A stretch of DNA of 52,781 nucleotides, the filler included, from Stramenopiles sp. TOSAG23-6 (Eukaryota): assembly GCA_900128565.1 (NCBI GenBank). It is 2 parts of 2 records of this genome, joined end to end, with 100 filler letters (N's around TTAATTAATTAA, not from the genome) between each part and the next. Parts side by side here need not be neighbours in the genome. Positions count along the whole stretch, not along the records: positions 26,597 to 52,781 come from LT635987.1; 1 more part is not named here. The stretch is one strand, 5' to 3'. This document shows, in pieces, positions 300 to 52,700 of the stretch; the stretch's first letter is position 1, and each line of letters begins with the position of its first letter. The position numbers and the translations under genes are program-made. Under the pieces are notes generated by a model. The model was not told where the DNA came from, ran no database searches, and saw nothing but the letters and a program-made list of their open reading frames with translations.

Positions 300-2358
300 T
301 CAACTCATTAATTGTCGGCATTCAATTGAGAGTAATATAGTTTCAATTCTCTCAATATCATTTGGTGTCAGTACAAGAGTTCCAATTTTCAAATTTAATT
401 TTTTTTTCGTAACTAACTTTGAATCTACCATTTGTTTTTCTATGTTTTGAACCGTATTGGACGACTTATTCTCATTAGATAATTTGAGTACTTTATGAGA
501 ATTTGATGTATCATCTTGACCTTCAAGCCATTTCTTACTTTTTATTTTCTTTTCTTCTCTTTTTTCAGTTTTTAATTCACCACGAGACTTTTGTCGATGT
601 ATAACAAACTCACCTGGACAAGGTGTACCAACTTTACTAGCAATACCATTCATACCAAAATTTTCATATAAAGTATTTGCCACGTTTCTACTGGTCCAAA
701 TCATGTATTGTGGAAAAATATTTCAAAAAAATATAAAAAAAAATGTTAGGTACAAAATTTACTATGAAAAAAAATTAGACAAAAAATTGAAAAAAAATAA
801 AACATACATATTTCCGCGACTTAAAGGTTTGCTTTGATCCCAACGAGAAAAGCACATGTATTACAACAAATATTTTGAAATAGTTTGAAATTTGTTAGGT
901 ACAAAATTTCGTATGAAAAAAATATACATTCGAAATTGGTAAAAAAAAAAAAAAAAAATCATGATAAAAAAATCCAAAAGAAAATTTAAAAAAAAATTGT
1001 TAGGTACAAAATTTGGTACGGAAAAAAACGTACATCTTAATACTTCTACTCATAACTTCAAGCGTGATACTGTCTCTTTTATACCANACAGATGTAAGTG
1101 AATATTCAATATCGTCCATATTAAATTTAATTTCATCGTTAGATATGCCGTATAATGTTTTCTCTCGCTCCATTGCCAACTGGAACGCTTTCGATTTGAA
1201 ATTTTTAGTCAATCTTTCACTTCCGATTGGTTTTATTGGCAGTTTTGCAATTTCGCAAAGGGTAAATGAAGCCATCCCCATACCAGCAACAGCTGGTGCA
1301 GTACCAAGTACTGGCATAATACGAAGTCTAAAATGAGCACGGGCACCAAAATGATCAGGATCNGCTTTCTGTGCGTCTGTTAGGGGTAACAAATTAACGC
1401 GTGGAACTTCAGAAGAAAATATACAAGGAATACCAATTTTTTTGCACGAATTTCTCGGGCCCAATTTTCCAATATTATACCTCTCACGAAGTTGTCTTCT
1501 TGTTGCGCAAGCTAATCCGTCAGATAACACGTCACTAAGATCAGCGATTTGAAGTCGTGTTGGATCAGCACGAGCACCAGCACCGAGTGCACTCACTACA
1601 CGAAGTTTTTTTTCCAAACATGCGGCAAGCAAATCAGCTTTTGTTCGAACATCATCGATACAGTCAAGAACAAAATCAGGATTTCCGGACAATAAGTCAT
1701 CTGAAGTCTCTGCACTGAATGTGTTGACACAGACTTCAACTGTACAAAACGGAGCAAATTTTTTGAAAAACTTTTGAAGAGCAATTGCTTTCGGAAGACC
1801 GACGTCATCGTATGTTGCACAAGCATGCCGGTTCAAAGAGGATAAAGTAACCATATCAAAATCGACGATTCGGATTTTTCGTACACCAGATCTAACCAAC
1901 ATATGAGCTGCATGACTGCCAACGCCACCAAGACCAACAACCACAACAAAAGCATCGTGGATAACAGCCTGTGCTTTGTCACCAAAAAAAGCACGATTTC
2001 GTGCAAATTGTTCCTCAAATATTTCTGGTGGTACGTCTTTTGGACCTCCATTTTCATCTGAACGTAAAGCTCTATACATTTTGTATGTATGTCGAATAGA
2101 TGCAAGAATGGCAGAGACCATACCCATTGGTTCTGATGCGCGGGAAAAGACTTCTTCAGGCCATAGAGATTTGTATTTGGAACTTTGCCCAGAAGTTTTT
2201 TGAGTCTCATTTTTGGAACTTTGCCCAGAAGTTTTTTGAGTCTTACGCAAAAAGAAAGCAACCATACCAGTAACAGCTGCTCCAGTAGCAGCAACTGTGA
2301 CGGCAACTGCAAATGGGCAATGTTTGGGTGAACTCTTTGATGAGCTACAGCTTGCCAT
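300..2358 (-). CDS. tRNA threonylcarbamoyladenosine dehydratase (TcdA/TCD1-TCD2-like ThiF/E1 family); exons 2358-1034, 855-808, 702-300
   Basis: VVVVGLGGVGSHAAHMLVRSGV, DFDMVTLSSLNRH, VLDCID and GAGARADPTR motifs, plus an N-terminal hydrophobic anchor. Removing two non-canonical introns gives ...SIKM-CFSRWDQSKPLSRGN-MIWT..., matching the RWD..P...N C-terminal motif of eukaryotic TCD proteins. Confidence 0.88.
703..807 (-). mobile_element. Non-canonical introner-like intron (105 nt, GT...CAT, AT/AT direct repeat)
   Basis: AAT AT|GTATGTTTTATTTT...TTTGTACCTAAC...CCACAATACAT|G ATT TGG restores the frame. Confidence 0.85.
856..1033 (-). mobile_element. Double-length non-canonical intron (178 nt) with two element cores
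   Basis: AAG AT|GTACG...GTAATACAT|G TGC TTT. It contains two AAATTTTGTACCTAAC cores (+ strand gttaggtac at about 894 and about 999). Confidence 0.8.
2177..2243 (-). repeat. 36-bp tandem duplication in coding sequence (TQKTSGQSSK x2)
   Basis: Two copies of ttggaactttgcccagaagttttttgagtct. Confidence 0.9.
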
Positions 2359-7095: not shown

Positions 7096-9376
7096 ATGAA
7101 TGATGAAAACTATGACAAATGGCGCCGCTATCATCAAGCTATACGAGGTGGTCGTAGCCCTTTATCTTTTGCAAAAAAAGCTACCCCAATGTGGCAAAAA
7201 GTGCATGAGAGTAAATCACGCCTACCTCCGATGCGTTGTGGTCAAGACTTAATTGAGGTTATTGGAGGCGACTATAATCTTGAAGGCTTACAAGCTGCAA
7301 GAGCAAAAACAGCTATTGTAAAAAATACACCCAAAATAATGCAAAAATTTGCGAATGCTACNCGTGCAGTCACCTCACTTCATTCAACAAAAAGAAAGAA
7401 GAACAACGCTAATCGAAGTGCGTTCAAAAGTACTTCCGATAAAATGTTTTTCGGGCTCACGGCTAGTGAAAGGCTTACGAATAGGCTGCAAGTTTCAGCT
7501 ATTAGTAATGTGAATGAACTTCGAGAGTCATTACATTGTAATGGTATGCGTAGTCATAAACCTAGTAAAAAGAATAGCAGTGACAGCAGTAGTAACTCTG
7601 AAATCAACTTCAGCAACCAAGTAGGAGAAAATGTTTTTTACAGCTCTAAAGTGTGCTTCGAGTTTAAAACAACGGAAGAAAGTCTATGGCTCTCTGTTGA
7701 TAAACATGGAGTAGTAGCAGCACGACCTCGAAAAACAGANGGATCACAATTAGGATTTATTTTTGTATTTTCCTTAATTAATATGAAAAATATTGGGGAT
7801 AGTGGTAAAATATTATTTGGAGANGACGTATCAATTTGTATTAGTAGAGGCGAAGGTCATCGTTGGCAATCGGGAAGTGTCATTGGTAGTCGCATGCATA
7901 ATGCAATAAATCTTATAAAAGAAACGAGACCTGACAACTATATCATGGGNGATGCTGTTCCAATATGCGCTAGTTTGCCTATTGACCAAGNTAATGAACG
8001 ACGACAAGTAAATGTATGTTTTATTTTTTTTCAAATTCCAATTTGTTTTTCGTACGGAATTTTGTACCTAACATTTTTTTTTTTTAATATTTTTCCAAAA
8101 TACATAGAACTGCGAGTGTTGTTAGTAAATTTAAGTTTCGACCTGCTCTTAAAGAAGAAGCATACCATAACGGCGGACGACTCAAAGCAAAACANATTGC
8201 TCTAGAGAAACTAAATAATCCAAGTGTAACAAAAAATGGNGATTCCGCAGTAAAAAGAAAACTACCCAAAGCATCACAGTTGTTTAATGCGTGTCCGATT
8301 TATTTAGAACAAGACTGGTATATTTTGGGTACTGAAAATGGCATAGAAAATACTCAAAAACATAGTGGTAATAATAAAACGAATACTGCTACAAGTAGTT
8401 CTAACGCAGCAAATAATAATGATGATGTGACTAATAAATCGAGAAAAGCTGTGTTACAAAAAATAATATGCTCAACACAAGCGAAGTCTAGTTTATTTTC
8501 AGTACCAATGTCTGGAGTTTGGATTTTGCGTCTNGTAAAAGCGTCTACAAATGGTAAGAGAACAGGTGGAGATACATACGCNGAAATACTAGCATCAAAA
8601 GCAACAGACCAACTACAAAAATCAGCACACCTGAGAGGAGGAAAGTTGTCATATCCCAAAGAAGGGATTCGTGGTGGTACAAATTTTGCACTAGATTTAC
8701 GACAGAAAATGTTAGAAAAGGATGTATCTACTGAAAAGAAGTTTCTTTCAAATCAATATGAAACATCTACATTGCATTTCGAAAATGGGAAATCGAGTAT
8801 GCAAAGTTTTCTAGTTGATTGTCTAGAAGACAACCTAAACCATTCCATTATCCGAGTTCAAACCCATCATCGGCCAANTTATAAGAGAAATACTCAGTCT
8901 TTTGGAATGAATGCTAAAAGAAGAACATGTATGTGTTATTTTTTTCAATTATGAATTTATTTTTCGTACGCAATTTTGTACCTAACAAATTTAAGTTTTT
9001 TTTTNTNATATTTTTCCAAAATACATCTATAAGAAACAAAATGAGGAGTTTAGGAATTTACAAGAAAAAGAAACCCCGTTTCCCATTAGGCCAGAAGCTT
9101 TGGTATAAAGGGATGTGTGGGTCAGATTTGNCAGCTGTTGATCGTTCTATTAATGATATTATTGACGCTGAAAATAAATTAACAGCTGATGCATTGAATG
9201 AANCNCGTGCTAGGGCAAAGGTGCGTGGTGAAGTTGGATTACATGAAGAGGTTGTCCATGGTAAGCATATTGCAAAGCATTTGAAAGAGGTTGATGAAGA
9301 TATGATCAAAATATTGAAGCACTGCAGGAACAATCGTGATTTTATTGAACTGTATGATGGCTTGTTCAATGGATAA
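7096..9376 (+). CDS. Hypothetical protein; exons 7096-8013, 8106-8928, 9027-9376
   Basis: Three ORF pieces join into one frame when two element copies are removed (RQVN-RTASVV; KRRT-SIRNKM). Confidence 0.7.
8014..8105 (+). mobile_element. Non-canonical intron (92 nt, GT...CAT)
   Basis: GTA AAT|GTATGTTTT...CGTACGGAATTTTGTACCTAAC...CAAAATACAT|AGA ACT. Using the adjacent AG (8106-8107) gives a stop within 6 codons. Confidence 0.85.
8929..9026 (+). mobile_element. Non-canonical intron (98 nt, GT...CAT)
   Basis: ACA T|GTATGTG...TTTGTACCTAAC...CAAAATACAT|CT ATA restores the frame. Confidence 0.85.
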
Positions 9377-9642: not shown

Positions 9643-12600
9643 CTACCAATCAGATGACCCATTATCAAGACTATTTTTCACACTTCCAAACTTTTTCATA
9701 TCCGCATGAGCAACTTTAAGATCTTTTCGAACTTTTTTACGCATGTAGAATATAGGACAATCCTTATTACTACACAATACATCTTGGTGTAGTGATCCCT
9801 GACACCGTTGACATTGAGACCAGAGACGTGAAAATCGTGTTTCTAAATCATGTAAATTGGATAATTTTTCAGTATATGTTTGAACTTCATTACCTGAACA
9901 ATGCTTGCAAAAATGTCCATTCTTTTTTGTCCATCCACTAGGAAGNACAGCTTTACACGAAATACACTTATCCTTTTTCACAGCAAACATCATGATACCA
10001 CCTGCTTTGGCTTTAGGTAGAGCTTTCTTAATAGTACGCGTATGATCACCGGCGAATAGAGATGAGACATTCTCAATAATGGGACTGAAAATTCGTTCCA
10101 AAGGTTTTTTCAACTGATTTTCCAAATAATATTGAGTATCCAATGGCAAATCATTTTCAAGTACATATAACGGATCTTCAGATTTTTCAAATGCACGAGC
10201 TCCTTTGCCTTTCTGAACAATAACATACGGCACGCGATCGCCAACGACAGGAGCACTTGAAGGATCCCGTTGAGCCATACGCCTTGCAAGTTCCACATGA
10301 GCTTGTTTGTTTTTATATTCGTCACTATCAATAGGTTTAGACAAAGATTTTGTAATCACAAGTAAAGAAATGTCAACCTTGTTCTGTAATAATTGAGAAA
10401 TCATGTGTTTGGTGTATGCAATTGCTCCCTCCACATCACGCTGTACAATAATTTTGTCGAGAACTTTACCTACGACATTACGAACTAGACCGGAATTATC
10501 TCTGCGAACAGTTTCAATACCTTTTGAATCTAATTTATCCCACTGATCAGGTCTGGTCCAATACAGTCCTGCATACCTTTTTTTATTCATTAATAAATAT
10601 GGAAAATAAACTTTTTCAAATTCAAGCTTTACTGGTGATGGAAACAACTTGGTACATATCTCCGCAGCTTTCACTCCAAGGTCCATTGCTTCTTTCACTG
10701 TATCGACACCAAATTTAACCATTACGGAATCAGTGTCGCCATAAACGACTATAGCATCNGCGGGATGTCCGTTCTTAATAGTGTATATTTCTTCAACTTT
10801 CTCTTTTGTTTGCTGAATCATATCACGACCGAATGCAGTGACTGAAGAAGATATTGGTAGGCAAGGGAGTTGACCAACAGTGGCACCTGTAAATCCATAT
10901 ACTGAATTAGCAGAAATCTTCAAAGCCAACTGTCGTCCATTTTGNACNGCTTTAACCATAGGATCTGTCGCTGCTTTCATATCCTTTTTTGCTTGAGATC
11001 GCGCAGATAATAATTCTTCTAAAATCGTTGGAAGTAATCCTTTTTTGACTTCTTTTTTCACGAAATAGTCTCCAGTTGGTGTTTTTTCGTATTGATCAGG
11101 ATTTAATTTATGAATATCTTCAGCGCAAACTAATGTAGAGTAGCATAAGTTATGTGCCATCATAATAGATGGGTATAGAGATGCAAAATCCAATGTTGCA
11201 ATAGGGGTATCATAATAAGCACGCTTTGGTTCGATAACTGTTGCACCTTCATAACCATCAGCACCACCTGCATTCGCTGATCTTTGTACAGTAGGTACTA
11301 ACATGTTCTTTGTTCTGGCCTTTCTGTAAAGCATTGATAAAACTTTAATCTGTTGTCCACGTTCTAAGAGAAATGATAATGGTACACCAGTGACTCGCGC
11401 CATTTCTACATGATTCACGAGAACCATTAATTTATCCATAAGACGCTGTGGAAGATATGCATCTTTAATACAATACACAGCTAAACGTCTTCTGTCAGCA
11501 TCACTACCTCTTTGTAGATCTGAAATGATCGAATGGTGAACATCTTCCTTCTGTTGTTCTAAGAAATGCGCAGAAACAGAATTTAATGAATATGACGATA
11601 ACTTATGATTCCGCCGCATATAAGTGATCATATCAAAAACTACTCGACCATCAATNTCCGTTGTTATACTATCACGCCGACCATGGGCAGACGATTGAAA
11701 TGTTGTTTCTTTCATTCTACATTGTCTACCAATTACACGACCCCAACGTGCAAATTGGTTATGAATTTTTAGTGCTTTTGCACGATTTAATAAATATGGA
11801 ATATCAAAATTTCCAATATTGTAGCCAGTAATTATATCAAAATCCACAGCAGTTATAAATTTTGTCCAGTTATTGAGAAGCTCTTGTTCAGTTTCATGCG
11901 AAAAAACCTCAGCACCGACAATAGGAAGACAACCTTTAAGCGTAAATACGTTGCGAACCATACTTGTTTTTTCTCCTTGTACGGTTACGATATTTGCGAT
12001 TTGGATCACTGGATCTTTATCAGCTTCTGGAAAGTGATTTTTCCGACCCATGCACTCAATATCGAATGAGAGAACACGAAGTGGAGCTAAACCCATCCAT
12101 TCACCTTCAGGTTTGTGCGAAATAACGGAATCAAAACAGATATCAAATTCTGCTTGACACAAAGTGAGATGATCTTTTTTTTCTCTCATTGAGTATGTTG
12201 CTTTTGGAAGTTCTAACCAATTACATCCAACAATATCGCAGTCAATCATGAAACGTAAAAGGAATGGCATATTAGCTTCATAACACTGATATTTGCGAAA
12301 TGAATGCCCAGGAGCTGCGAAACCATTCTGCATTATTCCACGAGCTGTAGCAACAAAGTTTGGCATACAAACATATATTTTGAGGAACTTGCTCTTTACG
12401 CGCCCATGAAAGCCAAGAATAGACTGCTTCATTTCTTCTTGGATTCCAAGGATGTACGTTGGGATAGGTTGACCACGAGCACGCTCGCGAACTGCAGAAT
12501 CTAGTGCTGAACGAAATGGTCCGGTGTGTTCAGGTTTAAAACCAGGTGGAGCTTGAACATAAAAATATGGTGTAAACCCATGAACATGCGCAAGAACACT

Positions 12601-12975
12601 GTTACCCAGGCGATTGACACCGTATAACCGAATAATTGGTACTGGTTTACCCTTATTTCCGGGTACTTCCCTTCCCTTGGCAGGATTCTCCGATAGTGCA
12701 CGTCCTGAATACATATCAATATCAACAGTTTGAAACGAAACTGAATACGTCTGTGTATTTATTACCGGCAACGCAGGTCGAGCCCAACACTGTCCATCTA
12801 TTTCTGCATCGTTGCCTTCACCATTTTTGAGAAAATCAGGTTGGGATAGTCGTGCTTCTTCAGCAGCAGCAGACACATTATCTACTTTGAACTTTTTCTT
12901 TGATCTTTGCGATACCTCTGGAGCTCTCTGCATGCGCTTGTTTTCTTTATTAGCCGTTGCAGTATCTGAGCTCAT
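9643..12975 (-). CDS. POLD1: DNA polymerase delta catalytic subunit
   Basis: Exo motif [35 protein letters not shown], and C-terminal CysA/CysB ([23 protein letters not shown]). Intronless. Confidence 0.98.
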
Positions 12976-13367
12976 TCCTCAATGTTATATTATGCTCGAT
13001 GTNTGAATTTGCTTCACAGTTAACACGCCGTGTGATTTTAATCAGTTTCCCTCTGTCCACAGAGTGAATGCAATGACACTCTTGGCTTCTTGTGAAAACA
13101 TCATCCATCAAAATTTAGCGCGATTTCGATTTTTGTTCTTTTTTTCGTTTTGAATTTTGACCGACTTCTTCTTGAGTCGGGACTTGACTAACTTTTGTCG
13201 GAAGTATACCGAAGTCTACTATGGCACTAGTGCCGTTTGGTATCTTTTTGTTACCCAAGAAACACAAAACTAGTACAGTGTTTCAGAGGGGAAAGAATTT
13301 CTCATTTGGCGACTATAAGTAATTGATACAGAATCCTGTAAATCACTTTCTGATTACATGTGTTGAA

Positions 13368-17042: not shown

Positions 17043-19096
17043 TTACAGTCTTGAAACAAGAAGGTTCTGCTTTCTTCCCAACTGACTTTCTTTANTGTGT
17101 TTACGGACAGTCGCTTTGATCTCTCTTGCCCAGACTTTGCGTTTGTTACCTGATAGTGGAGCTCTCAGCCAGGTAAAATGATTTCGGGGAAGTTTCTTTA
17201 ACTCATCAATAACAGGAGTTGATATTATGGGTACACCTGCACGCTGGATTGTTTCTTCAAACTTTGCTGGATGTGCTGTCAGTACAGCAACAGTTGGAAT
17301 ATTTGTATTAGTTGACTTACATNGAAATTTGTCAAGTGCAAAAATTCCAATGTACCATGAAAAATATATTTTATGTTGGACATTGGTTAGTGATGGAATT
17401 TGGAATTAAAAAAAAAATGAATTAAAATGATGAAAACATACATGGCAGAATGTGGGCAAAGTATATATTGGTTTTCTCTGAATACTTTTCTAATAGTAGC
17501 CAGAGTGTCAGTATCAGATACAGCAATTGCTGTGAAAATATCCTGTAATTTCTCTAATAAAATATTTCCTAATTGAACGCCGCGATTTTGTTCAAATTCT
17601 GTCATTATATATTTTACTTGTCTTGAGTTGTGACCACTTGCAAAATATAAGTATTGTGAAACATATAAAAAAAAATAAAATATTTGTTAGGTACGAAATT
17701 TTCAGATGCAAAAAAAAAGTTTGAAATTCAATTTTGAAAACAAACAAAACTCTTTCTAAATTGTATGCAAATTGTATATCCATAGCGGGTGACTCTGTTT
17801 TCTGATTAATACCAAACGACATATCGCCAAAAGTAAGTGTTCTATATACAACATCATTAGCATTCGTTGCACAACAAATATTTCCTATTGGAACGCCCAT
17901 GCACTTGGCTAAAAATCCACCCATTGCATTTCCCATGGCTCCAGAGGGAATAATAAAGTTCACAGGTCCATTTGCTTCCTTGTTCATCTGAGTGTAGACC
18001 CAAACATAGTATGAACTCTGCGCCATAATGCGGGCCCAATTAATTGAATTTATAGAACAAACATGTAGTGGGAAAAAAAAAAATGTGTAAAAAATGTTAC
18101 GTACGAAATTTGGTACAAACAAAAAAANTTCGAAATTCAATTTTGAAAACGAACATTGTGTGAAGAAGTAAATTCCGAGTCTAGAAATATCTCTTTTAAC
18201 GCTTCCGCTTGTTCGTCAGTATTNCCTTCCGTACGAAAAACGTGAACATTAGGACTGTCTACAGTTGTCAGCTGCATTTCTTGTACGGAAGTATTGTGAA
18301 AAATATTTTTTCTTTGAATAAAAAGTTTGTTAGGTACAAAATTTGGTACAAAAACAAATTAGGCAAAAAATCCAATTTTGAAAATGTACAAGAAACTCNT
18401 TGATGAGGATAAAGACAGAATATTGAAACAAAAGGGCAATTTTTCACTGCAGCGACAGCTGCTGGTCCTGTATCTCCGGAAGTCTCTACGATGATTGTCG
18501 CTTGACCGTTTCTTTTTTGAAGATAATAATTGAGCAACTGAAAATATTGTGTACAAAATGTAAACTATAAAAACAGATAAAAACAGTTCTGTTATAAAAT
18601 ATTGCGCTCTTGATGAATTGTACAATAAACAAAATACGCAACGATTTGCTGGCCTATGTCTTTAAATGCGAGTGTTGGGCCTCTACCAGTGTCAAGCATC
18701 ACCCTTCCACCAACTTTCAACAGAGGTAAAGGAGGTTCACAACCACCGTTAAAAGTTTGAAATCCGGCTGTTGTCATTTTCAGGCAATCATGGAGAGGTA
18801 TANCCGTAAACTTGTGAATGGTTTGTGCACAAACCTGAGCCTTTGATGTAAATAAAACATGTAGTTTAGAAGTTAGAAACGTTATTTCATTGAAGAAATT
18901 AAAATATTGTAGAAACAATACTTACCATTGTGTACTTTTGGGCTGCCCAGTTTCTGAGCTCAGTAAGTGTGTAGAAAGGCAAAGTTTCTGGTACATAAAG
19001 ACCTCCATCTGAGGCATATGCGGAAAGCAATACCTTCTCAAATGATGTACCCCTGTCGCCACCTCTGGTGGAACAAAATAAAGGTGGGAAAGACAT
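17043..19096 (-). CDS. thrC: Threonine synthase; 7 exons, 1 canonical and 5 non-canonical or diverged introns
   Basis: STRG, ASDGGLYVP, GPTLAFKD (PLP lysine), ETSGDTGPAA, LYP..VS.VQE.Q.TT, SINSINWARI, PSGAMGN, SPAMDI..YNLER, CPHSA.G, TAHPAKF. Ends ...LLVSRL-stop. Confidence 0.93.
17350..17441 (-). mobile_element. Diverged non-canonical intron (92 nt, GT...CAT)
   Basis: GCC AT|GTATGTTTT...CACTAAC...CATGGTACAT|T GGA gives CPHSA-IG. The palindromic core is lost, while the ends and CTAAC are kept. Confidence 0.85.
17649..17745 (-). mobile_element. Non-canonical intron (97 nt, GT...CTT, TT/TT direct repeat)
   Basis: GTT TT|GTTTG...CGTACCTAAC...CACAATACTT|A TAT gives NLERV-L-YF. Confidence 0.87.
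18063..18154 (-). mobile_element. Non-canonical intron (92 nt, GT...CAT)
   Basis: CAC AAT|GTTCG...CGTACGTAAC...CACTACAT|GTT TGT gives HN-VCSINSINWAR. Confidence 0.87.
18289..18389 (-). mobile_element. Non-canonical intron (101 nt, GT...CTT, TT/TT direct repeat)
   Basis: TCT T|GTACATT...TTTGTACCTAAC...CACAATACTT|CC GTA gives YPHQxVS-S-VQEMQLTT. Confidence 0.87.
18542..18637 (-). other. Intron with uncertain boundaries (96 nt GT...TTT, or 105 nt GT-AG at 18538-18642)
   Basis: An intron is required between KDIGQQI and LLNYYL. Both boundary choices are in frame. Confidence 0.6.
18841..18925 (-). other. Canonical GT-AG spliceosomal intron (85 nt)
   Basis: ATG|GTAAGT...TTCTAAC...CAAAG|GCT CAG, in frame and unrelated to the repeat family. 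Confidence 0.88.
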
Positions 19097-26496: not shown

Positions 26497-26596
26497 NNNN
26501 NNNNNNNNNNNNNNNNNNNNNNNNNNNNNNNNNNNNNNNNTTAATTAATTAANNNNNNNNNNNNNNNNNNNNNNNNNNNNNNNNNNNNNNNNNNNN
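26497..26596. other. Artificial contig spacer
   Basis: 44 N + TTAATTAATTAA (stops in all six frames) + 44 N, 100 nt in total. Confidence 0.95.
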
Positions 26597-26650
26597 TTGT
26601 ACCTAACGATTTTTTTTAGATTTTTTTTGAAATATTTTTCCAAAATACAT
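26597..26650 (+). mobile_element. 3' half of non-canonical intron, cut by contig start
   Basis: TTGTACCTAAC...CAAAATACAT|ATT CAA. Confidence 0.8.
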
Positions 26651-29600
26651 ATTCAATCAATAGATGCTGGCCANGAGTCTGTTGTTGCAATTTTAAAAGA
26701 TGAAATTGAAATATTAAATAAAGATTCTTTACAATTGCGAAAAGACGTCACAAATTTAAAAGAGAAATCTTCAAAAAGTTCATCGAATTTAAGCGAAGCT
26801 ATACAACAACATAAAGAAGAAATTGTAAAAATTAAAATTGAAAATGAAAACAAAATGAAAAAACAAAAAAATGAATGTGAAGACAAAGTCCACAATTTAG
26901 AAACTCAAGTATCAGAATGGAAAAAAACACATGAAATTATAGTACAAAAATTTGATTCTAGAGAACAAACTCTTCTTGAAAATCAGAAATCGATTACAGT
27001 CCATGTTTGTTTTATTTTTTTTTTCAATTTTTAAAAAAAAAAAATTTGGTTTTTCGTACGACATTTTGTACCTAACAAAAAAATCGAATTTTTAATTTTT
27101 TTTCACAAAACATCATCAAAAACAAATTTCGGATTTGACTATACGACTAAAAAACGAAAACAATTTAGCAATAGAACGGTTACAATCGAATCATCTGGAA
27201 GAAATGGCAAAGCTGCAAAAAGAAAGATATTCTTTAAAAGTTGAATTGTCAACCTACATTCAAAAGTTGAATGATGCAAAAGTTGAAACAAAGGCTCTGC
27301 AGAGTAATAGTGTAGATGATGAAAATCGGTTGAATACGCAAGTATTGCAGTTAGAAGATTTACTCGAGGATACTATAAAAAAACACGAAATCGTATTGAA
27401 AGAGAAATCAGCATCGCATTCGGATGCTATAGCTAAATTATGTGAGAAATATACTCTAGAATTAGAAAAGTTACGTCAAACATCAAAGTCAAATTATCAA
27501 ACCGAACTCGATACAATTCATGAAAATCATTTGAATACATCGAAACAATTAGAAATGAAGGTGTATGTTTTATATGAATTTCTAATTTAAGTTTTTTTCA
27601 TACGAAATTTCGTACCTAACGATTTTTTTTTGAAATATTTTTTCACAATACGTCATTGAATGGAAAACAAAGTACGAAAATGACGTTCAAAAAAATGAAA
27701 TAAAATTTGAGGAAGAAAAGAAACATCATACATTAGAAATTTCACATATTTTGAAAGAGCATAAACATACAATAACATGCTTACAACAAAAATATTCTGT
27801 GGATGTTGAACGCTTAGCTCAGCATTATAGCAACCGCACAGACCAAGTTCAGAAAATAGCTGGAAGTTATAGAAAGGAAGTCAAACGCCTTGAGAATGAA
27901 GTAGATGAATGGAAAATGAATCATAATCGTCTGATTGAGGAGCATGTAAGTTCTCGTTTTTTTTTCAATTTTTTTTTTTCAATTTTTTTTTATAAAAATG
28001 TTGTACCTAACAAAAAAAAATGAAATATTTTTACAGTACATGAATCTGATGAAAAAGAGAGGATTGCGACATTTCAAGATACACTTCAGCGACTCGCCGA
28101 TCNTCACAAAGATGAACTTTCAAGATACGTTGAACAATTTGAAAATGAGAAAGCTATTTCATTGAATAGATTACAAGATTCACATAATGATGAGGTGACA
28201 CGTGTCCGATTACAAATTACAAATTCACAGAATTCACTTTCAGATGTAACGGCAACTCTTGAAGAAAAGCACAAAACCGTCCTGCTAGAAAAAGAACAAA
28301 ATTACCGCNATAAAGAAGCAAAGTTGATTCTTGAGCATAATCATGAGAAAGAGAAAGTTTTATCTGACTTGAGAAAACAACATTCNATAGAGATAGACCG
28401 CTTAAACACGCAAATTCGTCGTTGGAAAAGTTCTTATGACGATGCTCTCGTAAGGAACGATCTTATTCTTGTGGAGGGAGAAAAAATAAGGAAAGATGAA
28501 ATGTCTGGTATTACACAAAAATTTGAAGAGGATTGTAAAGAATTGAAATTGAAATTCGAAATAGAAAAAAAAAGCGCCATTGAACAACACGAAATAAAAA
28601 ATAAATCAGATCTATCTCGAATGGAAAGAATGGCTACAATGTGGAAAGACTCTCATTATAAAGCAACTCAACAACATGAAATTTCATTGAAAGAGCTCAA
28701 AAGAGATCACGATGAATTGGTCAAAGAAAACCATCAGCTTCAATTGGAAGCACTACAATTTCGTAATCAATACATTGATCAAAGCTCCAACTATGAACGA
28801 ACTTGTAAAATGAGTGATATAAGAAAGATTAAAGAAGAGTTGTACGAATATAAAAAAACTTCTGTATCTCTTGAGAAATACAAGAACGATATGAAACAAA
28901 AAGATGATACATGTATGTTTTATTTTTTTTTTCAATTTTGATTTTTTTTCGTACGGAATTTTGTACCTAACGAATTTTTTTAGAATTTTTTGAAATATTT
29001 TTCCATGATACATATTCAAAAGAAATTATACAAATGCAAAAAGACAATAAAAAAATAATTTTGGAGATGGAAAGAAACAAAAAAACACTTGAAAATTCGN
29101 TAGCTACGAAAATTNGTACCGATTCATCAGTTCATTCTCAAATTGATGAAAAAATGAAAATTAAAGCAATTATTTCAGGACAAACNTTTTTGAGTACAGA
29201 CGATTCAAAAACAACTGATGAGCTTCAGTGTAATGTATGTTTTATTTTTTTATTTCGATTTTTTTTCATACNAAATTTCATACCTAACGTTTTTTTTTTT
29301 TNAAATATTTTTTCATAATCCATATAAACAAAGTTAAGAATTTTCAAATCGTTGTGAATGAATGGAAATGTAAATATGATGATGTTTTGAACAGAAACAA
29401 AAGTTTGATTTGTAAACATGAAAATGTATGTTTTTTTTTTTGTATGAATTTTTTTTTTATAAAAATTTTGTACCTAACAAAATTATTTTTTTTTGAAATA
29501 TTTTTTCACAATACATGTAATTTCAATGTTGCAGGAGTCGCATAAAAATACATTACAAATGGTGACAGATAGCTTGATGAAAGAGTTTACCATTGAAAAA

Positions 29601-32582
29601 ACGACNGTGGAAAAAATGTGTAAAGATTCTCATGAAAATTTGGTACTCGTTTTGGTACAAAATTGTAAGAAAAAATACGAAGAGGAAATCAAAGAATTTC
29701 AGTGTACAATTCAAATAATGAAAGAAAATTATGAAAAGTGTAAAAAAGAACTTGAGATTCTAGATGAGAAGCACCAAATGTATTGTAAACAAACATTGGA
29801 AAGTCAAACTAANGAGTATTCAAAATTAGAAACTGACTCTATTGCAAAGATTAATTCTTTGCGACAAGAAAAGTTTTTATTGGAAGAAAACCTTAAAAAT
29901 ATAAAAGAAACACACCGAGATGAGATAGCTACCATTCAGTTGAAGAGTGCATCATCTGACGATTCATTGAAAATAGCTTTACANACTCAAAATGAAAAAA
30001 TCAATGAACTTATTGCACAAAGTTTGAAACATGAAAAATCGGAAAGTTTTCATACAAGTACCATACAAAAGTACGAGGCTCAATTAAAATCCATGCAAGA
30101 AACAATAAAGAAAAAATCTGAGCTGCGGCGTACGACNGATCGTCATAATAAAAATCAGATTTTATTATTGGAGGAAAATATTTCAGAATGCTTACAAGAA
30201 CAAAAACTTGTAAAAAAAAGGTATGAAGAAAATCTTGCCAAACTTGAAGAGAAACTTAATGATAAAGAAACCATTTTGAAAAATGTAAATGCACAACACC
30301 TCAATACTGTTGATGATTTACATCGCAAAATAGCTGAAATCTCAAAGGAATATAAAGCTTCCCTTGAAACATATCAAACAAAAAATGATGAACTCAGTGA
30401 AACTATAACTACTTGTAAGAAAGCTAATTCCCAATTAGAAAGAAAAATGATGGAAAGACTCAATAATTTAAAAAAAAAACAAGATGTTGAAATGACGAAA
30501 AGATTGAATTACATAAAAAAATCACAAGATATTGAAATATCAGAGATAATTGCCAAACATAAGTCAAATATTGCGTCACTGAAAAAATCCCAGAATTTGG
30601 TTAAAACACAAGAACTGAGGGAACAGTTTGAAATTTATGAAAAAGAATTAAACAATGTTAGAAATGATCTCTGTGTTGCAAATGACAGAATTCAACGTGT
30701 ATGTACGTTTTATTTTTTTTCAATTTCGAATTTATGTTTCGTACGAAATTTTTTACCTAACAAATTTTAGTTTTTTTTTTGAAATATTTTTCCAAAATAC
30801 ATTGAACGAGTCAAAGATATTCGAAAATGAAAAAAATGAAAAAACGAAAGAAAATACAAAGATCAAAGATGATTTGGATAAGCTTCATATAAGAGAACAA
30901 AAGTATCAATCTCAACTAAATCTCACATTGAAAGAATTGGAAAAAGTACAGATGTGTATGTTTTATTCTTTTTTTCAAATTCGAATTTTTTTTATAGTAA
31001 ATTTTGTACCTAACAAATTATTTTAGATTTTTTTTTTGAAATATTTTTCTAAAATACATCATTAGCCAGAGAAAAAGAAAAGAATTTTTTCCTCATGACA
31101 CCTCCACCAAGAAAAAAACCTGAGACATCTCAATTGAATAATCCTTGTCATGTGGATACATATCCAATGTCATCTCTAGATAATCATTTGTTATATACTG
31201 ATGAGAAGTATGGCGATTGTCAAATTTCATCACCTGAAGAGCTACCAGTAACTGCATTGGATGAAAAGGAACATACAAATATATCCGAAGCTTCAAGTAA
31301 TACATTGATGAAAACGAATAAAATTTCATTACTTTTGAAAAACTATTTTTCAGCTTGGAAAGATGCAGTTCAAATGTCGGTAATCGAATCTCTGTTAGTA
31401 GACTGTCGAAAATGCGCAAAAGAAGAATTGAATACAACACTAATAAAAGCNGAGAAAGATATGCAGTTTCGTGTTTCTGAGATAGAAGATGCTCATGTAG
31501 TGGCGTTTGAAAAATTAAAAGAATATACACAAGTTGAAATGCAGAAAAAAATGAAAGATGTGCATAAAAAACACGAAATTCAGCTACAAACTGAAAGAGA
31601 AGAAGCAATCTCAAACATGCACAAACAATTACTCGATATAGAAACGCAGCATAATATAGATCTACAAAATGTACAAAAAGAGGCGTACGCNGATATGCAC
31701 AAAAAGTTAAATGAAAGAGAAACGCAGCATAATATAGATCTACAAAATGTAAAAATTGAAAGAGAAGAAGCAATNTCAAATATGCACAAAAAGTTAAATG
31801 AAAGAGAAAAAGAGTTCAAGATACAAATGAAAAATGCACAACTTAAACGAGACTCGAAAGTAATATTTCCTGTAAAAAAAACGGGATGTAAGATGGCTTT
31901 CTTCCTTATGCGAATTATGATTGTCAAAAAATCTGCTGATGCAAGAGGGAAAGCCTGGGCCTTCCAACGTCTGATTGCAGAAACTATAGGACATCGTCGT
32001 GAGGTGACATTAAATAAATGGGAGCATGATCGTGTAGTTGCAATGCAATTTCATGCAGAATATACAACTAAACTGAAAGAAGCAGAAAGAAAGCTTGCGT
32101 TGGCATTAAATACAAACGACAATGTCGACGAAGAAAGTCTTGGTATATTAGATAGGTCTGCAGGATCTGTTGCTGTAGATAACATTCAGTTACGTCAGCG
32201 ATTGCATACGGAAGCAGAAAATGCTGAGAAAAGAGAAGAAGAATTTTTGACAAAGTTGGCAGTCTTACAAGCTGAACTACAATGCAGTCGATCNCTTACT
32301 AATCAAAATGCTTCAAATATTGAAGATTCAAATTGTCAGCCAAAATTGTGTAATTCACCAATGACAGTCTTACGCAATATAAATAACAAATACAATATAA
32401 CGGAAGAAATTGTTTCGTGCTCTGATTNAAAGACGTCTCTACGAGAATTTGGGCGAATTTTATTTGACGAAAAACTCCGTAAAACGCAACAAGACGAAGA
32501 AAATATTTTGGATGATGAAGAAAATATTTTGGATGATGATGATTGGATGGAGGGCGAAATCACATTAGCTGAGATACAATAA
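26651..32582 (+). CDS. Large coiled-coil protein (5'-truncated); exons 26651-27004, 27114-27562, 27654-27945, 28042-28912, 29014-29234, 29324-29425, 29517-30702, 30803-30955, 31060-32582
   Basis: E/K/Q-rich heptad ORF pieces form one continuous frame after removing 8 element copies. Confidence 0.8.
27005..27113 (+). mobile_element. Non-canonical intron (109 nt, GTTTG...CAAAACAT)
   Basis: GTC CAT|GTTTG...|CAT CAA in frame. Confidence 0.85.
27563..27653 (+). mobile_element. Non-canonical intron (91 nt, GT...CGT, GT/GT direct repeat)
   Basis: AAG GT|GTATG...CACAATACGT|C ATT GAA TGG in frame. Confidence 0.85.
27946..28041 (+). mobile_element. Non-canonical intron (96 nt, GTAAGT...CAT)
   Basis: GAG CAT|GTAAGT...TTACAGTACAT|GAA TCT. 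The CAG 5 nt upstream is out of frame. Confidence 0.85.
28913..29013 (+). mobile_element. Non-canonical intron (101 nt, GT...CAT)
   Basis: ACA T|GTATG...CATGATACAT|AT TCA in frame. Confidence 0.85.
29235..29323 (+). mobile_element. Non-canonical intron (89 nt, GT...CCAT)
   Basis: TGT AAT|GTATG...CATAATCCAT|ATA AAC in frame. Confidence 0.85.
29426..29516 (+). mobile_element. Non-canonical intron (91 nt, GT...CAT)
   Basis: GAA AAT|GTATG...CACAATACAT|GTA ATT in frame. Confidence 0.85.
30703..30802 (+). mobile_element. Non-canonical intron (100 nt, GT...CAT)
   Basis: GTA T|GTACG...CAAAATACAT|TG AAC in frame. Confidence 0.85.
30956..31059 (+). mobile_element. Non-canonical intron (104 nt, mismatched flanks GT/AT)
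   Basis: ATG T|GTATG...AAAATACAT|CA TTA in frame. Confidence 0.83.
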
Positions 32583-32800
32583 AAAAATATCGCGGAGAAA
32601 TTTGATTGGATGAAAGTATTTATAATATGAATAAAGACAAATAGTATATATATTATCTCAAAGATAAAACAATTGTGTTATTGTCTTTCTTANATATTGT
32701 TTTCACTGATAAGATATAAAAAGGAACANTGTTTTCTACTTGTACGATATAATAAAATTGATGGCCTAAGTTTAAGAAATTTTATGGAAATAATCGTTTT

Positions 32801-49700: not shown

Positions 49701-52700
49701 TATTTTTTCTTACAATTTTGTACCAAAACGAGTACCAAATTTTCATGAGAATCTTTACACATTTTTTCCACNGTCGTTTTTTCAATGGTAAACTCTTTCA
49801 TCAAGCTATCTGTCACCATTTGTAATGTATTTTTATGCGACTCCTGCAACATTGAAATTACATGTATTGTGAAAAAATATTTCAAAAAAAAATAATTTTG
49901 TTAGGTACAAAATTTTTATAAAAAAAAAATTCATACAAAAAAAAAAACATACATTTTCATGTTTACAAATCAAACTTTTGTTTCTGTTCAAAACATCATC
50001 ATATTTACATTTCCATTCATTCACAACGATTTGAAAATTCTTAACTTTGTTTATATGGATTATGAAAAAATATTTNAAAAAAAAAAAACGTTAGGTATGA
50101 AATTTNGTATGAAAAAAAATCGAAATAAAAAAATAAAACATACATTACACTGAAGCTCATCAGTTGTTTTTGAATCGTCTGTACTCAAAAANGTTTGTCC
50201 TGAAATAATTGCTTTAATTTTCATTTTTTCATCAATTTGAGAATGAACTGATGAATCGGTACNAATTTTCGTAGCTANCGAATTTTCAAGTGTTTTTTTG
50301 TTTCTTTCCATCTCCAAAATTATTTTTTTATTGTCTTTTTGCATTTGTATAATTTCTTTTGAATATGTATCATGGAAAAATATTTCAAAAAATTCTAAAA
50401 AAATTCGTTAGGTACAAAATTCCGTACGAAAAAAAATCAAAATTGAAAAAAAAAATAAAACATACATGTATCATCTTTTTGTTTCATATCGTTCTTGTAT
50501 TTCTCAAGAGATACAGAAGTTTTTTTATATTCGTACAACTCTTCTTTAATCTTTCTTATATCACTCATTTTACAAGTTCGTTCATAGTTGGAGCTTTGAT
50601 CAATGTATTGATTACGAAATTGTAGTGCTTCCAATTGAAGCTGATGGTTTTCTTTGACCAATTCATCGTGATCTCTTTTGAGCTCTTTCAATGAAATTTC
50701 ATGTTGTTGAGTTGCTTTATAATGAGAGTCTTTCCACATTGTAGCCATTCTTTCCATTCGAGATAGATCTGATTTATTTTTTATTTCGTGTTGTTCAATG
50801 GCGCTTTTTTTTTCTATTTCGAATTTCAATTTCAATTCTTTACAATCCTCTTCAAATTTTTGTGTAATACCAGACATTTCATCTTTCCTTATTTTTTCTC
50901 CCTCCACAAGAATAAGATCGTTCCTTACGAGAGCATCGTCATAAGAACTTTTCCAACGACGAATTTGCGTGTTTAAGCGGTCTATCTCTATNGAATGTTG
51001 TTTTCTCAAGTCAGATAAAACTTTCTCTTTCTCATGATTATGCTCAAGAATCAACTTTGCTTCTTTATNGCGGTAATTTTGTTCTTTTTCTAGCAGGACG
51101 GTTTTGTGCTTTTCTTCAAGAGTTGCCGTTACATCTGAAAGTGAATTCTGTGAATTTGTAATTTGTAATCGGACACGTGTCACCTCATCATTATGTGAAT
51201 CTTGTAATCTATTCAATGAAATAGCTTTCTCATTTTCAAATTGTTCAACGTATCTTGAAAGTTCATCTTTGTGANGATCGGCGAGTCGCTGAAGTGTATC
51301 TTGAAATGTCGCAATCCTCTCTTTTTCATCAGATTCATGTACTGTAAAAATATTTCATTTTTTTTTGTTAGGTACAACATTTTTATAAAAAAAAATTGAA
51401 AAAAAAAAATTGAAAAAAAAACGAGAACTTACATGCTCCTCAATCAGACGATTATGATTCATTTTCCATTCATCTACTTCATTCTCAAGGCGTTTGACTT
51501 CCTTTCTATAACTTCCAGCTATTTTCTGAACTTGGTCTGTGCGGTTGCTATAATGCTGAGCTAAGCGTTCAACATCCACAGAATATTTTTGTTGTAAGCA
51601 TGTTATTGTATGTTTATGCTCTTTCAAAATATGTGAAATTTCTAATGTATGATGTTTCTTTTCTTCCTCAAATTTTATTTCATTTTTTTGAACGTCATTT
51701 TCGTACTTTGTTTTCCATTCAATGACGTATTGTGAAAAAATATTTCAAAAAAAAATCGTTAGGTACGAAATTTCGTATGAAAAAAACTTAAATTAGAAAT
51801 TCATATAAAACATACACCTTCATTTCTAATTGTTTCGATGTATTCAAATGATTTTCATGAATTGTATCGAGTTCGGTTTGATAATTTGACTTTGATGTTT
51901 GACGTAACTTTTCTAATTCTAGAGTATATTTCTCACATAATTTAGCTATAGCATCCGAATGCGATGCTGATTTCTCTTTCAATACGATTTCGTGTTTTTT
52001 TATAGTATCCTCGAGTAAATCTTCTAACTGCAATACTTGCGTATTCAACCGATTTTCATCATCTACACTATTACTCTGCAGAGCCTTTGTTTCAACTTTT
52101 GCATCATTCAACTTTTGAATGTAGGTTGACAATTCAACTTTTAAAGAATATCTTTCTTTTTGCAGCTTTGCCATTTCTTCCAGATGATTCGATTGTAACC
52201 GTTCTATTGCTAAATTGTTTTCGTTTTTTAGTCGTATAGTCAAATCCGAAATTTGTTTTTGATGATGTTTTGTGAAAAAAAATTAAAAATTCGATTTTTT
52301 TGTTAGGTACAAAATGTCGTACGAAAAACCAAATTTTTTTTTTTTAAAAATTGAAAAAAAAAATAAAACAAACATGGACTGTAATCGATTTCTGATTTTC
52401 AAGAAGAGTTTGTTCTCTAGAATCAAATTTTTGTACTATAATTTCATGTGTTTTTTTCCATTCTGATACTTGAGTTTCTAAATTGTGGACTTTGTCTTCA
52501 CATTCATTTTTTTGTTTTTTCATTTTGTTTTCATTTTCAATTTTAATTTTTACAATTTCTTCTTTATGTTGTTGTATAGCTTCGCTTAAATTCGATGAAC
52601 TTTTTGAAGATTTCTCTTTTAAATTTGTGACGTCTTTTCGCAATTGTAAAGAATCTTTATTTAATATTTCAATTTCATCTTTTAAAATTGCAACAACAGA

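Follow-up and report, generated by a model that had tools for sequence, protein, structure and literature searches.

The question raised by this locus is at which base an intron of a long gene ends when a good CAG stands five bases ahead of the CAT that seems to close it, and what would direct the splicing machinery past that CAG. The window, by which we mean the whole stretch of DNA analysed (52,781 nt), is made of two contigs joined by an N-flanked spacer (26497-26596). The second contig (26597-52781) is a perfect inverted repeat of 11.8 kb; palindromic or duplicated contigs occur elsewhere in the same genome assembly (G000), which is probably an artefact of amplification or assembly. The organism, an uncultured marine protist, is a stramenopile, probably MAST-3; the named close matches of its polymerase delta are mostly stramenopile, and for another protein an identical entry to the one in G000 bears a label that reads as MAST-3. 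The polymerase delta gene (window 9643-12978, minus strand) shows no intron over 1,111 codons. The elements of the intron under study, its exons and the related copies in the window are the following.

27946..28041, plus strand: family intron GT...CAT, 96 nt, phase 0, with an in-frame TGA at 28021-23 (from sequence and frame check)
27943..27953, plus strand: 5' splice site CAT/GTAAGTTC, making 9 of 11 pairs with the organism's U1
28003..28011, plus strand: branch-point motif GTACCTAAC, with the putative branch A at 28010, 31 nt from the end
28024..28041, plus strand: 3' block, formed by AATAT, a T-run (28028-32) and then ACAGTACAT
28034..28036, plus strand: decoy CAG, with G at family position -6, where the consensus is A
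28039..28041, plus strand: putative acceptor CAT, whose AT repeats exon bases 27944-45 (2-nt direct repeat)
27654..27945, plus strand: upstream exon of a long gene, probably for a coiled-coil protein
28042..28912, plus strand: downstream exon
27005..27113, plus strand: family copy in the same gene, GT...AT
27563..27653, plus strand: another copy in this gene, with a CGT end and a direct repeat of GT
28913-29013, 29235-29323, 29426-29516, 30703-30802 and 30956-31059, plus strand: five further copies in the same gene, all with CAT ends
51337..51432, minus strand: identical mirror of 27946..28041 in the second arm of the 11.8-kb perfect inverted repeat
8014..8105, plus strand: family copy with an AG directly behind its CAT end, the CAT being in frame and the AG out of frame

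It had been claimed that splicing at the CAG leads to an early stop and that the CAT end keeps the frame, and both statements hold. The cut GT27946..CAG28036 takes out a 91-nt intron and runs into a stop 42 codons after the junction, whereas the cut GT27946..CAT28041 takes out 96 nt and leaves 299 open codons, reaching the next family copy; retention of 27946..28041 brings in the TGA at 28021-23. Each of the flanking exons has a single open frame (upstream, 104 codons versus 2 and 3 in the other frames; downstream, 299 versus 1 and 40). The CAT at 27943-45 lies directly before the GTAAGT that starts at 27946, and the 3' end reads TTTTTACAGTACAT/GAA, with the intron closing at 28041. The use of the branch motif would follow from its likeness to the sequence that pairs with U2. 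In the copy at 8014-8105, for which the AG behind the CAT had likewise been described as out of frame, the CAT end leaves 282 open codons and the AG at 8107 leaves 5, in agreement with that description.

Taken alone, the frame at the copy 27946..28041 leaves in-frame G[TC]-AG pairs possible; there are 23 of them, the nearest being 27950/28036, which adds three amino acids, and 27946/28059, which removes six. Considering that a single frame result is a 1-in-3 chance event, the support for the CAT end comes from the family. The mirror at 51337..51432 is not an independent copy, since it lies inside the perfect inverted repeat. No homologue of the host protein was found at E<=0.001 among 1.84 billion representatives, and a FAM184 match was weak and below the cut-off.

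A strict pattern combining the branch motif and the terminal block gave 5,509 matches in 21 Mb of this genome and 0 in the control, a count that is inflated by duplicated contigs and deflated by the strictness of the pattern. About 860 kb of fetched DNA (overlaps included) held 276 candidates, 163 of them with both ends called from intron-internal motifs. The family statistics exclude the copy at 27946, because the automatic caller put its donor at 27956 and it fell outside these 163 confident copies. The final bases were AT in 131 copies, TT in 11, GT in 9, the canonical AG in 6 of the 163, and others in 6; at 28036 the CAG is out of frame. Removal as GT...NT restored the frame in 99 of the 106 copies with clear exon frames. 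The lengths are spread evenly over the three remainders after division by three (54/53/56 in the 163 copies), and this ruled out that the copies are read through as protein. There are apparently thousands of copies of a small mobile intron, ending at CAT and passing over nearby AG sites, and the copy at 27946, which is not special by itself, follows a rule that holds across the genome.

The donor matrix of the family is GTAYGTTTT, and it is accompanied by a CCTAAC branch motif and a T-run. Where the copy does not end in AT, the end repeats the upstream exon directly in 19 of 32 cases (mean of 2.0 in shuffles, with 0 of 10,000 reaching 19), and this covariation of the two ends fits a target duplication of 2 nt. 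The inverted repeat at the ends is limited to GTAT/ATAC, about 4 nt, and does not covary. Starts other than GT at the family donor position were seen in 19 of 132 copies (AT 9, GA 3, GC 3, GG 2, TT 1, TC 1), at loci L033, L037, L039, L043, L092, L126, L141 and others; of the 8 clear cases that start with AT, 6 keep the frame, which suggests AT...AT introns.

Counting from 8 nt beyond the branch A, the first AG keeps the frame in 29 of 99 copies, which is the chance level, while the family end keeps it in 92. The claim that the 3' end is not found by scanning to the first AG is thus borne out, and it agrees with the lack of decoy depletion and with two conserved genes treated below. The AG-TACAT decoy occurs in 112 copies, versus 138 with C or T at position -6, a comparison that has no matched transition control; changes creating an AG at -6 are not visibly depleted, which is moderate evidence against heavy leakage. 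Twenty-six distinct decoy copies were collected in 30 loci, and an automatic rule assigned 15 of the 18 with clear frames to the CAT and 3 to the AG. Examined by eye, one of these three uses the CAT, completing an ankyrin repeat, one has an eroded donor and one has an A at donor position +1; this last cannot be told apart from a shifted GT-AG intron. AG is slightly depleted over the first 9 bases of the exon (61 versus 76 expected), which was not used as evidence. An AG acceptor is probably still usable in this organism, since canonical-looking GT-AG introns with GTAAGT donors persist, and the copy at 27946 itself has a GTAAGT donor and a textbook TTTTTACAG.

Conserved genes allowed the cut sites to be placed exactly. 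For threonine synthase, an HMM of 31 homologues was used to score all the cut pairs in these introns.

18841..18925, minus strand: intron 1, non-family, canonical-looking GTAAGT...AG
18542..18637, minus strand: intron 2, GT...TT, without direct repeat, ending 4 nt before a CAG
18389-18289, minus strand: intron 3, GT..TT
18154-18063, minus strand: intron 4, GT..AT
17745-17649, minus strand: intron 5, GT..TT
17441-17350, minus strand: intron 6, GT..AT

The non-AG end scored above the best G[TC]-AG pair in introns 2 (114.6 versus 105.8), 3 (112.7 versus 90.0), 5 (76.6 versus 57.3) and 6 (77.2 versus 53.3), and for intron 4 there was no open AG option. Intron 2 fixes the register as GT...TT, because it has no direct repeat and a left-shifted register would give F at a codon which, in the 68 homologues examined, is A or G in 42 of the 46 that match and F in none. 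Among the copies with a broken repeat, 25 retain the AT on the 3' side and 8 the AT on the 5' side (p 0.005). The length of intron 1 matches the closest homologue. This intron pairs poorly with the variant U1 described below (6 of 11), and a second non-family, canonical-looking GTAAGT...AG intron was seen at L033:6182 (plus strand).

A mitochondrial carrier with the same decoy scored 95.1 bits with the GT-CAT cut, which yields the homologous motif length, and 86.9 with the shifted GT-AG cut, which inserts three residues into a motif held at exact spacing by 97 of 119 homologues. The public model of this carrier, P0241 (L104:1452-1548), uses the shifted pair and gains three residues, by the same +4/-5 shift as in 27950/28036; this junction is probably a prediction error. 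In IFT54, which has the same decoy as well, Pfam positions 9-71 and 74-154 are contiguous over the CAT junction. Homology in the carrier and in IFT54, as aligned, favours the CAT end. We regard it as very probable that the CAT is the productive acceptor, also in the case that some splicing leaks to the CAG.

The only U1 found begins with AAACGUACAUG, where the Rfam consensus has AUACUUACCUG, and differs from it by three substitutions. These face donor positions +7, +4 and -1, at which the family has T (98%), T or C (96%) and T (87%); positions +4 and +7 were part of the scoring, and -1 was not. By its sequence the variant U1 is complementary to the family donor CAT/GTAYGTTT at all three changed positions. 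For 155 of 156 donors its pairing is better than that of the standard end, with a mean of 9.6 pairs of 11 for the organism's U1 versus 7.1 for the standard end. A pattern for a U1 5' end of the standard type gave 0 matches in this incomplete assembly, from which, being fragmentary, a second U1 could be missing. The GTAAGT at 27946 had been called a perfect donor, which is true for a standard U1 only; as the organism's U1 mismatches the A at +4, GTAAGT is a slightly weak donor here. An A at +4 is rare in the family (2 of 156), and 109 of the 156 family copies pair better with this U1 than the copy at 27946 does. In metagenomes the U1-variant pattern occurs at at least 120 loci, and among the matches listed none was similar to the snRNA cluster by blastn, which is uninformative.

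The genes for U5, U2, U1 and U4 form a head-to-tail cluster inside 640 nt (G000:C1146:9-645, L074). Stem-loop II of the U1 departs from the consensus, and the usual AUUGCAC loop is absent as such. The pairing regions of U2, U5 and U6 are standard and U4 is present too; U6atac was not found in the incomplete assembly. U12-type donors are of the RTATCCTT type, from which the family donor matrix differs. The following marks of U2-type introns were found: a 5' site complementary to U1, a branch motif with a pyrimidine tract, and U2, U4, U5 and U6. The genome holds one U2AF65-like gene, with an F at what we take to be the site where the animal ligand motif has W, which is not diagnostic; no U2AF35-like finger was seen in the loci of 17 zf-CCCH matches of the fragmentary assembly. 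Prp8 is nearly identical to the human protein over the inspected stretch, which we take to include the alpha-finger, and no altered pocket was seen there. In the Prp8 gene the frame changes within an N-rich stretch (L123:6086-6170, minus strand), which is probably due to a sequence error.

In the reading that we prefer, and that as a whole we hold to be likely, the copy at 27946 would be one of a family of transposon-like introns of about 95 nt removed by the major (U2-type) spliceosome. Its donor would be recognised by the variant U1, altered at its 5' end in a way that suits the family (CAU/GUACGUUU); the family's CCTAAC would serve as branch point and, at a guess, U2AF65 might bind the T-run. 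The 3' cut would be made where the element itself ends, some 10 nt past the last T-run and after a CA(C/A)AATAY block; the last two bases would be supplied by the 2-nt target duplication (mostly AT, also TT, GT and AG), and AG would not be required. The CAG at 28036 would be a point change inside the block, the productive mRNA being made at 28041.

A fixed distance from the branch point was considered as what sets the 3' end and was ruled out by its range of 23-54 nt (SD 5.1, 163 copies). The distance from the last T-run to the end has an SD of 1.1 nt, and for the A4 run of one subfamily the spacing is exact in all 53 copies; these spacing figures are partly circular, as the ends were called using the block, and they may be inherited from the element. 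Between AATAT and TACAT the copy at 27946 has 8 nt where 103 of 117 copies have 10, and this speaks against a strict ruler. The earlier note had proposed that the 3' site is specified by end pairing or by the terminal block. The second half of this proposal fits better than the first, and a block mechanism for the 3' cut is likely. None of the 57 copies with C at +4 has the compensatory G at -6 and 55 of them keep A, 11 of 13 copies with T at +3 keep T at -5, the non-AT ends copy the exon in the 19 of 32 cases given above, and no more than 60 of 156 copies have a predicted end pairing above 2.5 bp. It is for the absence of compensatory change in the ends that the T-run with the terminal block is favoured over pairing.

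Other explanations were weighed against this one. Both ends could be used at 27946..28041, the GTAAGT and TTTTTACAG being joined canonically in a large share of transcripts, out of frame and destined for decay, and the CAT giving the protein. The persistence of canonical-looking GT-AG introns speaks for it, as do the atypical +4 A and block spacing of this copy and the fact that frame arguments at steady state are blind to wasted isoforms. Heavy leakage should nevertheless deplete G at -6, and the counts of 112 versus 138 for two bases do not show it, with moderate force for want of the matched control; moreover, the CAG lies so near the branch A (26 nt) that only 2 of the 163 family ends are as close or closer. 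We consider this explanation unlikely. That an in-frame GT-AG pair is the real intron, either 27950/28036 with three more residues or 27946/28059 with six fewer, is quite improbable: a donor at 27950 makes 5.5 pairs with U1 versus 9, ends as far as 49 nt or more from the branch point are seen in 2 of 163 copies, and the same shift in the carrier disturbs the spaced motif and lowers the score, as described above, even though both pairs keep the frame, no homologue of the host protein excludes either of them, and P0241 was built with that very +4/-5 shift.

Base pairing of the ends, in which the short inverted repeat and the palindromic AT repeat would fix the 3' cut as proposed for euglenid nonconventional introns, is very unlikely. 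Besides the missing compensatory changes, the bases concerned are needed for pairing with U1, the fold of the copy at 27946 has a z-score of 0.28, and the family median is 1.3 expected bp, with more than 2.5 in only 9 of 58 non-AT/AT copies. In its favour, CAUGUA pairs with UACAUG in both the MFE and the centroid structure of this copy, where a 6-bp end helix is predicted (4.35 expected bp), and there are weak, non-significant hints of covariation (p 0.08, 0.10). A true register two bases to the left (AT...AC), possibly served by the minor spliceosome, would yield the same mRNA at 27946..28041 by virtue of the AT direct repeat. It is extremely unlikely, however, considering that threonine synthase intron 2 needs GT...TT, that broken repeats keep the 3' AT in preference to the 5' one, that U1 pairs in the GT register, and that U6atac was not found in the assembly, incomplete as it is.

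Beyond the cut at the element's end that we prefer, a broader proposal can be made, to which we would give an even chance: an introner invasion would have retuned the major spliceosome at both ends. U1 would have been rewritten at three positions, including the one that pairs with exon base -1, and the second step would ignore the terminal dinucleotide; the block would set the end and the duplicated target would supply it, a YAG five bases upstream would be ignored, and A, GC and GA starts would be tolerated.

Among the closest known systems is the chordate Fritillaria borealis, in which most introns lack an AG end, 3' AT ends included, and are removed by the U2-type spliceosome, with the 5' end of U1 strictly preserved and the U2AF subunits duplicated and divergent (PMC13326754). 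The non-AG ends and the apparent U2-type removal, here inferred from sequence, are alike; unlike Fritillaria, this organism is a stramenopile with mostly GT donors and one dominant family, and the 5' end of its U1 is rewritten by three substitutions. In Entamoeba and Mastigamoeba the 5' end of U1 has coevolved with an unusual donor consensus, to which it is now complementary, and no such change is reported for 69 yeasts, five Mamiellales-type algae and Thecamonas (10.1101/2022.06.08.495308). An apparent coevolution of U1 with the donor is common to both cases, but there the change is not reported to go with a repeated family or with loss of the AG acceptor, and here exon position -1 is covered as well. 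Euglenid nonconventional introns have no U1 complement and a stable end pairing, neither of which describes the family.

Introners are sequence families that form many introns in unrelated genes and carry a target-site-like direct repeat, and a 2025 survey gives AG and AC as their known 3' ends (PMC12130899). The family has similar introns in many unrelated genes and the target-site duplication too; unlike the introners of that survey, it ends in AT, TT and GT. Uncultured stramenopile assemblies are among the inputs of another introner supplement (PMC9860276). The introner elements of Amoebophrya, a marine protist, are repeated non-canonical introns with direct repeats at their borders; they have inverted repeats of 8-20 nt, direct repeats of 3-5 nt and no consistent border motif (PMC7789003), whereas here the donor, branch point and 3' block are stereotyped, with an inverted repeat of about 4 nt and a direct repeat of 2 nt. 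ISL2EU transposons duplicate a 2-nt AT at targets of the type A/AT/T (PMC4482050). The AT duplication is shared by the family, but the base before it is A in 27% and the base after it is G in 53% of the flanks, and there are TT, GT and AG repeats as well. No report of the family or of its U1 change was found in the literature searched, which covered few subscription papers and part of the supplements of PMC12130899 and PMC9860276.

Altogether, the three U1 changes that match these introns point to a splicing machinery that may have been reshaped by transposon invasion, and the weight of the finding lies in the genome-wide system and its U1 match, not in the copy at 27946. It bears on how the spliceosome picks the 3' AG and on whether introns or snRNAs change first: the three U1 changes suit the donor of the family, and U2, U5, U6 and the part of Prp8 that was inspected look standard. 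The genome contains one intron in thousands of natural versions, roughly a hundred of which share an AG decoy in the same position, and with the matched U1 they make both acceptor choice and the coevolution of U1 and introns testable from one transcriptome. Gene models of this organism constrained to GT-AG are probably wrong at many junctions, P0241 looking like one case.

Two seawater metatranscriptome runs (X1, X2) contained 8% of the words of 26597-32700. Over 26675-28308 pieces of the family repeat were covered and the exons were essentially uncovered, with no exon-exon joint, which is no evidence either way. Hundreds of short contigs from these RNA libraries match the family repeat on window 27555-27664, with a high summed depth, and some of them wrap from the 3' part of the repeat back to its 5' part. 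Intron circles were considered for these joints and dropped, as one joint matches an internal tandem duplication in L043. Such duplications, with two branch motifs, are present in some copies (window 703-1043, minus strand; L043:7032-7150; L031). A near-palindrome of the GTACGAAATTTYGTAC type lies just 5' of the branch motif and overlaps it, for example at window 27600-27615, and 67 of 156 copies are predicted to form a hairpin there of more than 2 expected bp.
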